A stretch of DNA of 64,000 nt from a virus (taxonomy: Duplodnaviria > Caudoviricetes): the IMG/VR virus record IMGVR_UViG_3300005805_003857, positions 24,369-88,368 of that record; one strand, 5' to 3'. Positions 45,827 to 51,176 of this stretch are shown here, in pieces (positions within the stretch are counted from its first letter, which is position 1; every line of letters starts with the position of its first letter). The position numbers were made by a program, and so were the translations under genes. Under the pieces are notes generated by a model. The model made no database searches. It was not told the DNA's origin and saw nothing but the letters and a program-made list of their open reading frames with translations.

Positions 45827-46993
45827 ATGGCAACACGTAAACGCAATTCAGAAGACCACAGTCAAGTTAAAGCATTGAACCCGAGAAACCCTGACACGCA
45901 ATATATGGGTAGTGAGCCTTTGTTCGTATTACAACCCGATCCTAGTATGCGTTTTACGGCACTTTCTAACGCATTCACTTGGTACAACTGTTTCTATGGC
46001 AAAAAAGATGCTAAAGAACTCATGTGCCAATACTTAGAACTGTCCGATCGTACATTCGAAGCAAAGAATATGCGTAAGGTCGCAGACAATGAATTCATTA
46101 ATACATATGGCTGGCTCGCACGTATGAAGTTACGAGGTCTTGAACTTAATGAAAGTGAAAACACTAAGTTTGAGAATGAAGTCTCCCGACTACTGAAAGC
46201 ACTTCATAAACCCGAAGTTGTAGAAACTTCTAGTGAGGTAGTTGAAGTTTCTACCCGTCCTAACATTCAAGATATTTTGCGTGAAAAGGCAAAAGATGCC
46301 GCCGGTGAATTGGAAGCGGTATTCGATGAATTTGTTACTGAGGGAAAAACAAAGTCAAAGACAATGGATCTTGTTTCTAAATTCAATGTTATGCCACAGC
46401 ACATCGGTTTAATTGCTGACATTTGGAAACGCAAGCAAACAGAATTTGCCGATCTACAAGAAGGCAAAGACAAACAATTAGTTGAGGGCTATAGTCACCT
46501 CACAAAGATTCAGATTCGAAATATTGTCAAATTTATTGAACAAGTGTTGACTGATTTGAATGCATACATTTCAGTTAAGAAAGCAAGCAAGGCTCCTCGT
46601 CAACGTAAGGCTGTGCCCGTTGAAAAGATTGTGGCACGTTTGAAATATCTCAAAACATTTAAAGATGTTACCGCAAAACTTGACTTGGTGTCTATCAGTC
46701 CTGTAAAACTTCATGGTGCAAGTGAAGCATGGATTTATGATAGCGCAAAGCGCAAACTACATCATTACATTGCTGATGATTATTCAAAAACATTTACTGT
46801 AAAAGGTAATACACTATTGGGCTTTGATACTACAAAGTCTGAAGTAAAAACTCTGCGTAAGCCGGGTGAACAAATTAAAGAAGTTATGGGAAGCAAGCCT
46901 GCGGCTCGTAAGTACTTTAACGATATTAAAGCAGTTGCAACAACACCTAATGGCCGGTTCAATGAATCAATGATTATCCTGCGATGCTTTTAA
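45827..46993 (+). CDS. early hypothetical protein (388 aa)
   Basis: AAGGAG RBS, own sigma70 promoter, basic C-terminal domain. Confidence 0.75.
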   Translation: MATRKRNSEDHSQVKALNPRNPDTQYMGSEPLFVLQPDPSMRFTALSNAFTWYNCFYGKKDAKELMCQYLELSDRTFEAKNMRKVADNEFINTYGWLARMKLRGLELNESENTKFENEVSRLLKALHKPEVVETSSEVVEVSTRPNIQDILREKAKDAAGELEAVFDEFVTEGKTKSKTMDLVSKFNVMPQHIGLIADIWKRKQTEFADLQEGKDKQLVEGYSHLTKIQIRNIVKFIEQVLTDLNAYISVKKASKAPRQRKAVPVEKIVARLKYLKTFKDVTAKLDLVSISPVKLHGASEAWIYDSAKRKLHHYIADDYSKTFTVKGNTLLGFDTTKSEVKTLRKPGEQIKEVMGSKPAARKYFNDIKAVATTPNGRFNESMIILRCF

Positions 46994-47677
46994 TTTGAGA
47001 GGCCCTCTGGGTCCTCTCATCTTAGCTAAAGATTCTTCACTGTGTTTGAACTTACCCTTCATCGGTGACGGGCCTCGCTTAGGACTGATTCGTTTCTCTT
47101 TGAGAGGACCCCTTGGTCCTCTCATTTTAGCTTTGTGTTCTTCTGATAAGGTTTTACCTAGTTTAGATTCACTAATTTTTTTACACCATTCATCATCAAA
47201 TACTCTTCCGGTTAATTTTTCGCTGAGTAGCTTTTTACTTTCTTCACTATGCTTTCTACCCTTGTTCAGTTGTTTACCAAAGTGTCCATTTTTAGAACCA
47301 GCGCAACCGGGGTGCCCGACCGGGGCACCATCAATTCCATTTTCTTCAATTAAGTTAGCCCAATGAACCGAGTTTACAATGTTATTGTCTCTTGAAAATT
47401 TTAAGGTAAATAGAGTACATTCATCTAGTGTTTGAAATTCCCAAACTTTTAGAGTTCTGACATGCTCAGTGCCGTGTTGTTTGATATGTCGTTGCCAATG
47501 TTTCCCAGACCCATGGTATCTGCGAACATTGCGAGTTGTTTTACCAAAATATTTCAATTTGGTTTTCGTGTGAATCTTGATATACAAGTAAATAGTTATG
47601 CTGGTGCTCCTTTTCAAAATGATAGCATTAGAGTCCCTGGGTTTGTGGAGAACCTCGAGGGACATTTTTGTTGACAC
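46967..47677 (-). mobile_element. free-standing GIY-YIG-type homing endonuclease with NUMOD3 repeats (probable true start ATA at 47599)
   Basis: IYLYIKIH...KYFGKT...YHGSG..W, WANLIEENG, KHSEES and KMRGPRGPLK repeats. Confidence 0.8.
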
Positions 47678-47732: not shown

Positions 47733-47984
47733 ATGAACGAACGAATTAAACAACTTGCTGAACAGGCTAAAAAACATGCTCTTGATGCTATGATTAAAAT
47801 CGCAGATAAAGAACAAGCATTGAAAGTGTATTCAGAATCGTATGATACCGAGTTCGCCGAGTTGATTGTCAGGGAATGTGTTGCTATTTGTGAAGACACT
47901 GACGGTGAGCATATTGCTGATGCCAGATGGGGTAGACGGTGTTGTGCTTTAGAGATTCGAGAACATTTCGGAGTTGAAGAATGA
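47733..47984 (+). CDS. small hypothetical protein, MNERI family
   Basis: Paralog of 18430..18654. Confidence 0.75.
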   Translation: MNERIKQLAEQAKKHALDAMIKIADKEQALKVYSESYDTEFAELIVRECVAICEDTDGEHIADARWGRRCCALEIREHFGVEE

Positions 47985-47999: not shown

Positions 48000-48437
48000 A
48001 TGAGCAATATTGATTTAAACAAATACAAACAATTCGTAGAGGCTGTAACAAGCCACGCAAGCAATGACTTGACTACATTTATGAATCGCCTTGATGAGCT
48101 AGACGCTAACTTTGATTCTACTGTATGTACGCACGGACCTGATATCAATGTCCCGTTGCTTATCACAGCATGTTTCGGTTTGGCGGCAGAGAGTGGTGAA
48201 TTCATTGAAGTGCCCAAGAAGATCATCTTCCAAGGCAAACCTCTTGATGACGCCACAGTCTTTCACATGAAACGTGAACTCGGTGACGTTATGTGGTATT
48301 GGATTAATGCATGTCGTGCATTAAATCTTGACCCCAACGAAGTTATTGACGAAAACATCCGTAAACTTGAATCACGCTATCCCGGTGGTTCGTTCGATGC
48401 TCACTACTCAGAGAATCGCAAAGAAGGCGATATCTAA
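48000..48437 (+). CDS. mazG: MazG-like nucleotide pyrophosphohydrolase
   Basis: GLAAESGEFIE..KK and ELGDVMWY; N..KLESRYP. Confidence 0.9.
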   Translation: MSNIDLNKYKQFVEAVTSHASNDLTTFMNRLDELDANFDSTVCTHGPDINVPLLITACFGLAAESGEFIEVPKKIIFQGKPLDDATVFHMKRELGDVMWYWINACRALNLDPNEVIDENIRKLESRYPGGSFDAHYSENRKEGDI

Positions 48438-48438
48438 T

Positions 48439-48663
48439 ATGAAACTCTGGAGTGAAAAAACTAATCTATATTTGTTTACTCCAGAGGAGTATGAACAACT
48501 ACCGTACGGTTTTGAACTAACTTGCATCAACGGAACTACAAAAAAGAAAGATGTTGATAGAGTTGACGGTGATACAAGATTTGGTCATATAGCGTTTGGT
48601 GTTAAAGATCCATGGAATCACCCACTCAAAGACTTGTTTCTAGTCTTTAAACTGAAACAGTAA
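48439..48663 (+). CDS. small hypothetical protein
   Basis: ATG at 48439 one base after the mazG stop. Confidence 0.6.
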   Translation: MKLWSEKTNLYLFTPEEYEQLPYGFELTCINGTTKKKDVDRVDGDTRFGHIAFGVKDPWNHPLKDLFLVFKLKQ

Positions 48664-48664
48664 T

Positions 48665-49075
48665 TTGTAGGGCTTCGGCCCTACAACCAATTATTGGTCT
48701 ATAGGTTCCGCTACCTAGAAATGCGGCGAAATCCCGTCCTCATCGTGCAGTGACGGTAGATGTGTGACCAACACAGATTTATGGGACTACCCTAGGATGC
48801 TTTAAACGTCTGTCCTCTGCACAGAAACGTTTCCCATATCTTAACAGTTGAAGTTGCCGGGTCATGGTAATAGCGATAGAGGGCCCGGACTGGTTGGACT
48901 ACCTGATGAATAATGTCCTACAATACCAGTGAACATGGCAAAGTCCCGTTAAGGGTTTATGAGACATAGACAATCCTCCATAGTAATCGTTGAATTCATC
49001 ATCGCCTATGGTTCCTCAAGAATGTTTTTTGGCTTGTAGATTTATATCTACTCGCCATTGCCTAAGAATATCTTA
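48665..49075 (+). ncRNA. candidate structured non-coding RNA of unknown family
   Basis: About 410 nt without an ORF, GC-richer, at least 8 helices including a C(UUCG)G loop and nested stems. Confidence 0.5.
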
Positions 49076-49115
49076 AACACATTAACCAGATAAATATAAG
49101 ATACAGGTAACCAAT

Positions 49116-49916
49116 ATGACTATTCCAATTATAACGCCAAACATACTTTCTACTCCCAACGGCATGGTGCTATCGGAGTTGAAGCAAGCCCTATTCGACA
49201 ACATACGATATCGTTTGGGTGACGGTATTATTGACTTAGAATTAGACCCGCAACATTATGAAGCGGCATATAACTATACAATAAAAACTTATCGTCAAAG
49301 AGCGCAGAATTCTACTGCGGAAGCATACGTGTTAATGACTACCATTAAGAACGTTGACACATATACATTACCTCAAGAATTTATCAATGTTAGATGTTTG
49401 TACAGACGTTCAGTTGGTCTAGAAACAGGACCGGGCTCTAGCAGTTTTGACCCATTCAGTAGTGCTATCCTAAACACTTACCTTTTAAACTATAACAATG
49501 CAGGTGGTATGGCAACATATGACTTTTATGCAGGTTATGTTGAATTAGCCGCACGTATGTTTGGCGGCTACGTAGTCTATACTTTCGATCCGGTTACCAA
49601 AGTATTGCGTATTGTACGTGATCCTAAAGCAACAGGTGAACGTATCCTTGTATGGGCAGATGTACAACGTACAGAAGAAGTATTGTTACAAGACCCAGGT
49701 GCAGGTGTTTGGATAGGTGATTTTATATATGCCGTATTAAAGGGAATTATTGGTGAGGCACGTGAGAAGTTTGGAACGATTGCTGGACCAGGTGGTGGAA
49801 CAACGTTGAATGGAACCGCTATGAAGGCAGAGTCTAAAGCACTACAAGAAGCCCTGATTGATGAATTGAAACGCTACATAGATGGATCACAGCCCTTAAC
49901 ATGGGTCCAAGGCTGA
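49116..49916 (+). CDS. gp13: neck protein (T4 gp13-like)
   Basis: LKQALFDNIRYRLG...ELD..HY, GEAREKF..IAGP.GG.TLNG; late promoter at 49090. Confidence 0.8.
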   Translation: MTIPIITPNILSTPNGMVLSELKQALFDNIRYRLGDGIIDLELDPQHYEAAYNYTIKTYRQRAQNSTAEAYVLMTTIKNVDTYTLPQEFINVRCLYRRSVGLETGPGSSSFDPFSSAILNTYLLNYNNAGGMATYDFYAGYVELAARMFGGYVVYTFDPVTKVLRIVRDPKATGERILVWADVQRTEEVLLQDPGAGVWIGDFIYAVLKGIIGEAREKFGTIAGPGGGTTLNGTAMKAESKALQEALIDELKRYIDGSQPLTWVQG

Positions 49917-50094: not shown

Positions 50095-50727
50095 ATGATT
50101 ATTGGAGTAACCGGCTTAATTGGGTCAGGCAAAGATACTATTGCTGACTATCTTTGTACATTTCATGGATTCAAACGAATGAGTTACGCATCTTCACTCA
50201 AAGACGCAGTAGCCAGTGTATTTGGTTGGAACAGAGAATATCTAGAGGGTTCTACTACATCAAGTAGAGCCTGGCGTGAGCAACGTGATGAATGGTGGAG
50301 TGAACGTTTGGGTATGACCATTACGCCTAGATGGGTTTTACAATATTGGGGTACAGAAGTATGCCGCAATAATTTCCATACTGATATTTGGGTCGCAAGT
50401 GTTGAAAACAAACTACGGCAAACTAATGAGAACATTGTAATTACTGACTGTCGTTTTGCTAATGAGGTTCAAGCACTTAAGAACGTGGGTGCTATTACTA
50501 TGCGAGTTAATCGAGGTGAACTTCCTATCTGGTATAATTCAGCAGTAGACTATGCAAATGAACCTGAAGGCAGTGAACAGTGGTTGAAAGCTAAAGTAGA
50601 ATTAGCAAACTATAGTGTCCATGCTAGTGAATATTCTAGTGTAGGTTTATTGTATGACTATTATATTGATAACAATGGTACAGTTACTGAGTTACACAAG
50701 CAAGTCAACTCAGTAGTCAACTTCTAA
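50095..50727 (+). CDS. deoxynucleoside monophosphate kinase (T4 gp1-like)
   Basis: GLIGSGKDT, LKDAV, PRWVLQYWGTE, ITDCRFANE; promoter TTGACT(50046)-17bp-TATAAT. Confidence 0.9.
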   Translation: MIIGVTGLIGSGKDTIADYLCTFHGFKRMSYASSLKDAVASVFGWNREYLEGSTTSSRAWREQRDEWWSERLGMTITPRWVLQYWGTEVCRNNFHTDIWVASVENKLRQTNENIVITDCRFANEVQALKNVGAITMRVNRGELPIWYNSAVDYANEPEGSEQWLKAKVELANYSVHASEYSSVGLLYDYYIDNNGTVTELHKQVNSVVNF

Positions 50728-51057
50728 ATCTCCCCTCTTCCAAGTAACTTCTTTCTTTTTAACTACCTCAACACAGTTAAGACATATAGTTCGTAAATTA
50801 GTTAATTTACAGTTATCTAAATCACCGTCAATGTGAAATACCGTTAACTGTGTAGGGAACACACTATGAAAGCCACATAAATCACATGTGGCTTTTTTCT
50901 TATATCCTGCATTTTTCCATCTAGGCGTTCTAGCTTTTAGTTTCTTTTTCTTTCTACCGCATTCGTCACATCCACTACGGTAATGTGTAACACCTTCACG
51001 GATATAATTCACAGCACAGTGATTTTTTCCGCATGAATTACATATAGGTCTTAGCAT
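50710..51057 (-). CDS. small Zn-binding HNH-like protein
   Basis: CxxC pairs; VFHIDGDLDN...NLRTICLNC. Confidence 0.7.
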   Translation of the reverse strand: MLRPICNSCGKNHCAVNYIREGVTHYRSGCDECGRKKKKLKARTPRWKNAGYKKKATCDLCGFHSVFPTQLTVFHIDGDLDNCKLTNLRTICLNCVEVVKKKEVTWKRGDLEVDY

Positions 51058-51176
51058 ACAGTATTTAGTTGGAACCTTCGAAGGCACGGTAATACCGTCT
51101 TTTTTTAATTTTCTACTAAATAATAGTATGCATTTTAGGTAGTAAACCTCAGAATTTTACATAAAGGAAAAACAAA

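Follow-up and report, generated by a model that had tools for sequence, protein, structure and literature searches.

Large, intricately folded RNAs without an assigned job are rare, and each one that was decoded, like RNase P, the group I and II introns, and HEARO (the guide RNA of IscB), has opened a field. Among the phage-borne examples, GOLLD and ROOL are roughly 580–800 nt long and typically located near tRNA genes. In phage T4, the genes e, soc, and I-TevI possess RBS-sequestering hairpins that contain the late promoter; through this device, read-through from early transcription leaves the gene silent, and transcripts made late leave it open. Furthermore, the T4 tRNA cluster and the small stable RNAs (species 1 and 2) are processed from early/middle transcripts. 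For GOLLD and ROOL, cryo-EM is reported to have shown intermolecular long-range pairings (bioRxiv 10.1101/2024.12.08.627333). Here, we describe a phage RNA that bears some likeness to GOLLD and ROOL and to these T4 elements, and for which a literature search retrieved no earlier description.

The RNA lies in a 64-kb window (the whole stretch of 64,000 nt that was analyzed) of an 88-kb fragment from an uncultured freshwater phage (completeness 21%, CheckV), and the genes in the window most closely resemble those of T4-like cyanophages. Positions 48664–49115 form a gap of 452 nt free of ORFs, which a sequence-only reading had singled out as the longest such gap and as GC-richer than its flanks. 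Both observations were confirmed: the runner-up spans 178 nt, and GC content is 0.436 in the gap vs. 0.39 in the flanks. The longest stop-free frame in the gap comprises at most 41 codons, and a comparison of chance ORFs across homologues revealed no conserved ORF inside the RNA element. The locus is organized as follows:

48000–48437, plus strand: mazG, upstream of the RNA
48439–48663, plus strand: 74-aa ORF (phrog_34791), between mazG and the RNA
48665–48686, plus strand: window-specific C(UUCG)G hairpin, 3′ of the upstream ORF stop and outside the RNA family
48690–49071, plus strand: conserved RNA core of ~382 nt, delimited by sequence conservation in alignments A1, A2, and A3 and by nhmmer
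49089–49096, plus strand: T4-type late-promoter motif GATAAATA, between the RNA and the neck gene
49105–49110, plus strand: Shine-Dalgarno sequence AGGTAA of the neck gene, upstream of its start
49116–49916, plus strand: neck/head–tail adaptor gene (phrog_211), downstream of the RNA

Several features of the wider neighborhood were recorded on the way. Two minus-strand ORFs (46967–47677 and 50710–51087) interrupt the otherwise plus-strand block and, by eye, resemble free-standing homing endonucleases (GIY-YIG-like with repeated basic modules; HNH/Cys-rich), and genes similar to these two ORFs flank the RNA in the loci L152 and L141. For the 83-aa ORF at 47733–47984, metagenome relatives carry replacements of 80–95 nt at 47755–47851 and 47880–47960; judged by its sequence, this is a modular, hypervariable small gene. 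A freshwater-2 RNA motif (RF02980; 56.5 bits, gathering score 49.9) was identified on the minus strand of the locus in a related phage contig (L100:9274–9351), upstream of the mazG region, and this match ends in AAGGAGAAAACAAAUG.

Homologues were collected with the neck protein as bait. Among the 80 closest IMG/VR loci, 12 carry a copy of the RNA at the same site (78–91% identical), and in most of the RNA-less loci, mazG and the neck gene are direct neighbors, ~45 nt apart. Searching with an invariant 17-mer yielded 83 viral contigs, essentially all with the complete element. A further 18 viral and 52 metagenome loci were retrieved with a second, independent probe, which was degenerate and taken from a different loop. 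The family totals more than 100 loci, with nhmmer matches that cover the entire profile, and the DNA runs containing the sequence stem from lake, freshwater, wetland, and “soil” metagenomes. The GTDB species genomes gave 59 exact matches to the 17-mer, all of them due to chance and none with the element; no prophage or host copy was thus found among these genomes.

The structure was evaluated on an alignment of 66 distinct sequences (A3; all pair counts rest on MAFFT alignments), using a model that was built by hand and distributes 88 pairs over 15 named helices, including four pseudoknot helices. Pairing under this model amounts to 91.8%, a level that none of 500 column shuffles attains (78.9%), and falls to 34–45% if partners are slid by 1–3 columns. 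Covariation among homologues, which had been suggested as a check for mazG-to-neck regions, was found in abundance: 68 of the 88 pairs display changes on both sides (806 cells vs. 235 expected), and mutual-information analysis recovered three long-range pseudoknots without prior assumptions. Paired cells hold 232 G–U as compared to 105 A–C combinations, a surplus that assigns the RNA to the plus strand, like the neighboring genes. The region is also more stable than shuffled controls, yet only mildly so (z = −2.2) and equally on either strand, and folding energy by itself is therefore weak evidence. The earlier proposal of a novel, densely structured plus-strand ncRNA is thus well supported by the covariation in 66 homologues, the G–U surplus, the missing ORF, and the missing Rfam match. 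We consider the covariation, as read from the aligned homologues, decisive for the reality of a structured RNA; the alignments show a widespread family of ~380 nt whose predicted compact fold is kept by compensatory evolution, and it is virtually certain that positions 48690–49071 (plus strand) represent a real and novel structured RNA family. From 5′ to 3′, the fold comprises a 5′ domain (the b/c pseudoknot, hairpins d and e, and pseudoknot A), junction f/g/h, the two long hairpins i and j, junction m/n/o, and hairpin p, as listed here together with the long-range pairings:

48694–99 with 48766–71 (span 48694–48771), plus strand: pseudoknot A, formed with the loop of hairpin e (helices 1–2; 93% and 80% paired)
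48703–06/48713–16 (helix b) and 48708–11/48723–26 (helix c), plus strand: H-type pseudoknot b/c (helices 3 and 4; 87% and 81% paired)
48734–38/48752–56, plus strand: hairpin d (99.4% paired; changes from GC to CG and from UA to AU)
48761–64/48772–75, plus strand: hairpin e (GUG/CAC to GCG/CGC to GAUG/CAUC; indels make the column counts noisy)
48780–48838, plus strand: three-way junction f/g/h (helices 8–11)
48805–08/48828–31 plus 48810–13/48821–24, plus strand: hairpin h, inside the first junction
48857–63/48882–88, plus strand: hairpin i (99.8% paired; covariation in 6 of 7 pairs, which take as many as 5 pair types)
48872–75 with 49053–57, plus strand: pseudoknot C, between the loop of hairpin i and the stretch directly 3′ of hairpin p (UA:34/AU:29, CG:60/UA:6; 97–100% paired)
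48889–93/48926–30 (outer) and 48894–99/48915–20 (inner), plus strand: hairpin j (helices 15–17)
48904–11 with 48994–49001, plus strand: pseudoknot B, between the loop of hairpin j and a joining strand further downstream (98.3% paired; UA:34/CG:30, GC:52/AU:11)
48939–48992, plus strand: second three-way junction m/n/o (helices 19–22)
48939–43/48988–92, plus strand: helix m, enclosing hairpins n and o
48945–47/48953–55, plus strand: hairpin n, inside helix m
48958–61/48979–82 plus 48963–64/48977–78, plus strand: hairpin o, with a conserved C-rich loop ending in CCUCC
49036–41/49046–51 with extension 49031–33/49054–56, plus strand: hairpin p (helices 23–24; counts blurred by 5′-strand indels)

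The pair types in pseudoknot A include GC:45/AU:18, GC:47/AU:12, and UA:48/CG:6; this helix replaced a CAAC/GUUG pairing suggested by RNAalifold. Two-sided changes apply to three of four pairs in helix b and to all four in helix c. The first junction is closed by helix f (48780–86/48832–38; 97% paired), in which 7 of 7 pairs covary, and contains the short and variable hairpin g (48790–96), which is vestigial in the window and 3–6 bp long in divergent members. The 18-nt loop of hairpin i is near-invariant, and every pair covaries in the inner helix of hairpin j (93% paired). In pseudoknot B, the two 8-mers of locus L150 are wholly different and still fully complementary. The loop consensus of hairpin o was drawn from the probe-independent set, and two copies of a CCU(C)AAGAAU motif flank hairpin p. 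Position 49054 covaries with 49033 in hairpin p and with 48874 in the loop of hairpin i, and all three are altered in the same two lineages (mutual information and inspection by eye), which could reflect a base triple or alternative pairings or conformations.

Eight of the helices that had been read by eye hold by compensatory changes. This applies to taggt/accta, ccgtc/gacgg, tgtgt/acaca, and gtagat/atctac, to atggg/cccat with the enclosed aaacgt/acgttt and ctgt/acag, to ccgggtc/ggcccgg, and to actggt/accagt with the enclosed ggac/gtcc. Three others, i.e., accaa/ttggt, ccatag/ctatgg, and gggact/agtccc, had to be abandoned, with 56.6% pairing vs. 54.9% in shuffles and covariation no better than in slid controls; the last of them had been proposed as a long-range switch and lacks covariation as well. 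Neither the four pseudoknot helices nor helices c, m, and n had been noticed in the eye-read inventory. In the window, the C(UUCG)G hairpin (48665–86) is present as described; however, it is missing from all of the 12 closest homologues and thus not part of the family, and its loop no longer serves as an argument for the strand. Other loci often carry non-homologous hairpins or canonical intrinsic terminators at this position. In one relative (X9 contig), the stop of mazG is fused to the start of the RNA via a canonical terminator-like hairpin (AAAACGGGCC...GCCCGTTTT) and the 74-aa ORF is missing (window 48438–48691); judged by this joint, the RNA begins close to 48691.

We then compared the RNA to known families. 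At the gathering threshold, Rfam 15 gave 0 matches in the 64-kb window, and with permissive filters nothing exceeded gathering in the RNA region or in L238 and L161. This test covers GOLLD, ROOL, HEARO, OLE, raiA, pRNA, RNase P, tmRNA, group I/II introns, and small ribozymes, and the covariance-model check proposed in the sequence-only reading therefore ended without a known family reaching threshold. No tRNA, tmRNA, RNase P, or group I/II intron had been recognized by eye either, in agreement with ARAGORN, which detected no tRNA or tmRNA in the window, and with the gathering scores. The motifs AAAGUCC and GAUGAAU are presumably similar to RNase P motifs, from which an RNase P candidacy arose; it was rejected as no model match was obtained at E up to 10. 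A group I intron was likewise rejected, because the element is intergenic in every locus, the genes beside it are whole whether or not it is present, RF00028 does not match at E up to 10, and the P7-like gggacu/agtccc lacks covariation. For a guide-RNA scaffold (omega RNA/HEARO type) or a retron msr–msd, an adjacent nuclease (IscB, TnpB) or reverse transcriptase is missing, the neighbors being mazG, small ORFs, the neck gene, dNMP kinase, and DUF5710.

The closest sub-threshold hit was to Polynucleobacter-1 (RF01718), with 21.5 bits and an E-value of 0.025 at 48703–48838 as compared to a gathering score of 37 bits. The two RNAs share an occurrence in freshwater metagenomes, a possibly phage-borne nature, and a local ACUAYCC ... 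GGAYGC resemblance. However, no match was obtained in L238 and L161 (E up to 10) or in nine loci (E up to 1), and the context differs: Polynucleobacter-1 is reported downstream of GOS11034/PSSM2_218-like genes (Weinberg 2010, PMC2864571), and here mazG, small ORFs, or DUF5710 are located upstream. PSSM2_218 is annotated as NAD synthetase, and mazG corresponds to PSSM2_188. Membership was rejected on these grounds.

By description, the RNA falls into the class of “ornate” large phage RNAs of the GOLLD/ROOL kind, being longer than 300 nt, noncoding, phage-borne, and built of covarying helices and pseudoknots. Like GOLLD (RF01998) and ROOL (RF03087), it has a length of several hundred nt and many helices and pseudoknots, is carried by phages, and is optional and without a linked protein. 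It differs from both in that neither sequence nor structure matches, in its length of ~380 nt, in its fixed position at the junction of early and late modules, and in the lack of a tRNA in the window. By analogy, its long-range pairings could be intermolecular as well. The stable RNAs of T4 are similar in that they lack a dedicated promoter and are optional among relatives, and excision from polycistronic transcripts, as proposed here by analogy, would be a further common trait; this RNA is much larger, however, and has no tRNA-like domain. Finally, the phi29 pRNA (RF00044) is a structured phage RNA tied to portal and packaging, and the RNA described here adjoins neck or terminase–portal modules. 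There is no match between the two, though, and since close relatives can do without the RNA, it does not count as a part essential for assembly.

In the T4-like lineage, gene order is conserved and comprises a 388-aa gene, mazG, 0–2 small variable ORFs, the RNA, the neck gene, and dNMP kinase. The neck-gene tree requires at least 10 switches between presence and absence of the RNA. A second backbone became apparent from 17 of the 52 metagenome matches, which lack mazG and the neck gene. Here, a DUF5710 (or other small) gene precedes the RNA, which is followed by small ORFs, TerL, HNH, portal, and major head protein genes, all on one strand. With presence in 6 of 27 loci, the RNA is optional there too, and ATAAATA motifs are found ahead of the next gene. 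In L325–L349, (G/T)ATAAATA lies upstream of a d6-family gene, ~20–25 nt before gene starts, and these second-backbone phages (TerL phrog_2, portal phrog_145) may use T4-type late promoters despite different morphogenesis genes. The RNA is co-oriented with its neighbors in every case in both backbones, and no protein family beside it is common to the two. The small ORF family c5 was considered as a partner, as all 12 RNA-bearing loci in the first set have it, but it is absent from the window and most other RNA-bearing loci. Being optional in two backbones without a common neighboring protein, the RNA is a self-contained, portable module with no linked protein gene. Its site is the junction between replication/nucleotide metabolism and morphogenesis, just 5′ of the first ATAAATA motif of the morphogenesis module.

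This position relative to the late promoter bears on function. In 46 of 46 RNA-bearing loci, (G)ATAAATA is located between the RNA and the neck gene, 20–33 nt before the start codon, and the late neck mRNA therefore does not have this RNA as its leader. A cis-acting leader or riboswitch of the neck gene was rejected for this reason, and also because the spacer varies from 37 to 371 nt and other genes are located downstream in the second backbone. In RNA-less loci (L001:1826–1872, L020:2956–3003, and 39 others), the ~45-nt spacer between mazG and neck forms a strong hairpin, with the late promoter in the 5′ arm and loop, the Shine-Dalgarno sequence in the 3′ arm, and arms that covary among lineages. 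This is the same device as the RBS-sequestering hairpins of T4. Those are local and 15–20 bp long, whereas the RNA described here has 380 nt and multiple pseudoknots, lies upstream of the promoter, and shows no clear Shine-Dalgarno pairing. Hairpin energy reaches −20.9 kcal/mol in L001 (z = −7) and −13.8 in L020; the remnant in the window (49083–49112) has decayed to −0.4 kcal/mol. On the modeled read-through RNA of RNA-less loci, the median unpaired probability of the Shine-Dalgarno sequence is 0.01. The maintenance of a covarying hairpin at this site indicates that read-through is real.

Minimum free energies were computed on the 58 nt before the neck start codon. The median is −15.8 kcal/mol without the RNA (n = 41; 93% at −8 or below) vs. 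−5.7 kcal/mol with it (n = 58; 17%; Mann–Whitney p = 8e-15). Among 8 phylogenetically independent pairs, the hairpin changes opposite to the RNA in ~7 and in parallel with it in none (p = 0.016). L152 possesses both RNA and hairpin, and RNA-bearing loci with longer spacers retain a weaker hairpin. The second backbone, where the RNA is not adjacent to the gene, reveals no such contrast (p = 0.8, n = 6 vs. 19). In the T4-like lineage, presence of the RNA thus goes along with loss of the Shine-Dalgarno hairpin of the neck gene, and the RNA seems to replace the small hairpin that silences this gene. Hitch-hiking could also produce the link, if RNA and hairpin-less promoter region move as one cassette. 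Sequestration of the Shine-Dalgarno sequence by the RNA itself was rejected, given that nested folding of RNA-bearing read-through RNA leaves it 0.40 unpaired (partial occlusion) and that the conserved GCCUAAG tail can pair with it only weakly, over 4–6 bp and in some loci.

Evidence on expression comes from one metatranscriptome run with a 194-nt contig (depth 12, 98% identity) wholly inside the RNA (48718–48906) and no mazG or neck cover; such contigs show neither ends nor strand, DNA carry-over is possible, and uncovered parts of the stretch count as no evidence. With regard to the transcript check suggested in the sequence-only reading, this contig, from a library that may hold DNA, provides a weak hint that the RNA outlasts the flanking mRNAs. 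A further metatranscriptome run, X20, probably consists of DNA. Consensus scans for an own promoter or terminator of the RNA performed no better than on shuffles. Canonical intrinsic terminators are located directly 5′ of the RNA in several relatives; with efficient termination at these sites, the RNA would depend on a promoter of its own, and the scans revealed no conserved one. An antisense target of the hairpin o loop was not found either, as no site with ≤3 mismatches to the 17-nt complement exists elsewhere in the window.

The account we tentatively prefer, as possible but short of probable, combines these observations. The RNA, lacking its own promoter, would form the tail of the early/middle mazG transcript, made via a leaky terminator in some relatives, and would then be cut out as a stable, globular species in the manner of the T4 tRNAs and small stable RNAs. 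Excision, or the fold acting as a block, would disconnect the neck cistron from early transcripts, such that the Shine-Dalgarno hairpin becomes dispensable and decays. The released RNA would then have a target in trans, either a host factor or a factor that the phage encodes at another site, and would act on it via the near-invariant loops of hairpins i and o. For this trans role, the likeliest kind would be an accessory one, host takeover or anti-defence. A 380-nt RNA with four pseudoknots far exceeds the needs of uncoupling, which counts against uncoupling as its main function.

The same excess bears on the next reading, in which the RNA is a purely cis-acting boundary element, i.e., an insulator, roadblock, terminator, or protector of early-transcript 3′ ends, that plays the part of the small hairpin in RNA-less phages and does nothing in trans. 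The anticorrelation with the Shine-Dalgarno-sequestering hairpin speaks for it, as do the constant position and orientation at the early–late module junction in two backbones and the lack of a partner protein gene. However, a hairpin of 15–20 bp suffices in 85% of relatives, and this reading offers no explanation for an RNA of such size with four pseudoknots and near-invariant loops. Moreover, the RNA has no terminator-like 3′ end, the Shine-Dalgarno sequence stays ~40% accessible on read-through RNA (nested folding), and L152 keeps both elements. We regard this reading as unlikely.

Somewhat less likely still is a free-standing RNA gene that acts exclusively in trans, as a decoy, a scaffold, or a ROOL/GOLLD-like, RNA-only homo-oligomer in which some of the “pseudoknots” are intermolecular, with hairpin loss as a by-product of cassette insertion. 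Against it, no conserved promoter was found; furthermore, the hairpin-less state persists in diverged RNA-bearing lineages, while compensatory change keeps the hairpin in all RNA-less ones. It would account for an RNA that is optional, portable, and partner-less and for the hairpins or terminators that flank it in many loci, and covariation assigns the long-range pairings neither as intra- nor as intermolecular.

A new large ribozyme, which would self-cleave or process the transcript at the operon boundary and thereby release or destabilize the late cistron on early transcripts, like a natural insulator ribozyme, appears doubtful, more so than the trans-only gene. A globular fold with several pseudoknots, in which nucleotides of junctions and loops are invariant, would suit a catalyst, as would the intercistronic position, the dispensable hairpin, and the metatranscriptome contig confined to the element. 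Against this stand the missing similarity to Rfam ribozyme families (E up to 10), the lack of an inferable cleavage site, and the length of known self-cleavers for such a purpose, which is below 200 nt. The intergenic position, the GC content above that of the flanks, and the module junction might suggest that the stretch works at the DNA level, as a replication origin, packaging site, or recombination hot spot, or that it is a decayed gene; this reading is effectively refuted by compensatory changes that keep Watson–Crick and G–U pairs on one strand, by the lack of repeats or iterons by eye in sequence and alignments, and by the lack of a conserved frame.

A bolder version, which we also deem unlikely, joins several of these elements: the RNA would belong to a new class, large and either catalytic or self-assembling, which phages use as a portable operon-boundary module that cuts or blocks early read-through ahead of the late morphogenesis genes, in place of the T4 hairpin, and whose released particle acts in trans against the host.

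New here are an optional RNA in two backbones, the lack of a protein gene traveling with it, and the anticorrelation with the hairpin, which is the first experimental handle on the role of the RNA. The family is abundant in lake and wetland viromes and moves between phage backbones. If the ribozyme or an RNA-only assembly proved true, it would be a new natural RNA machine, and a compact insulator part for synthetic operons might be possible.
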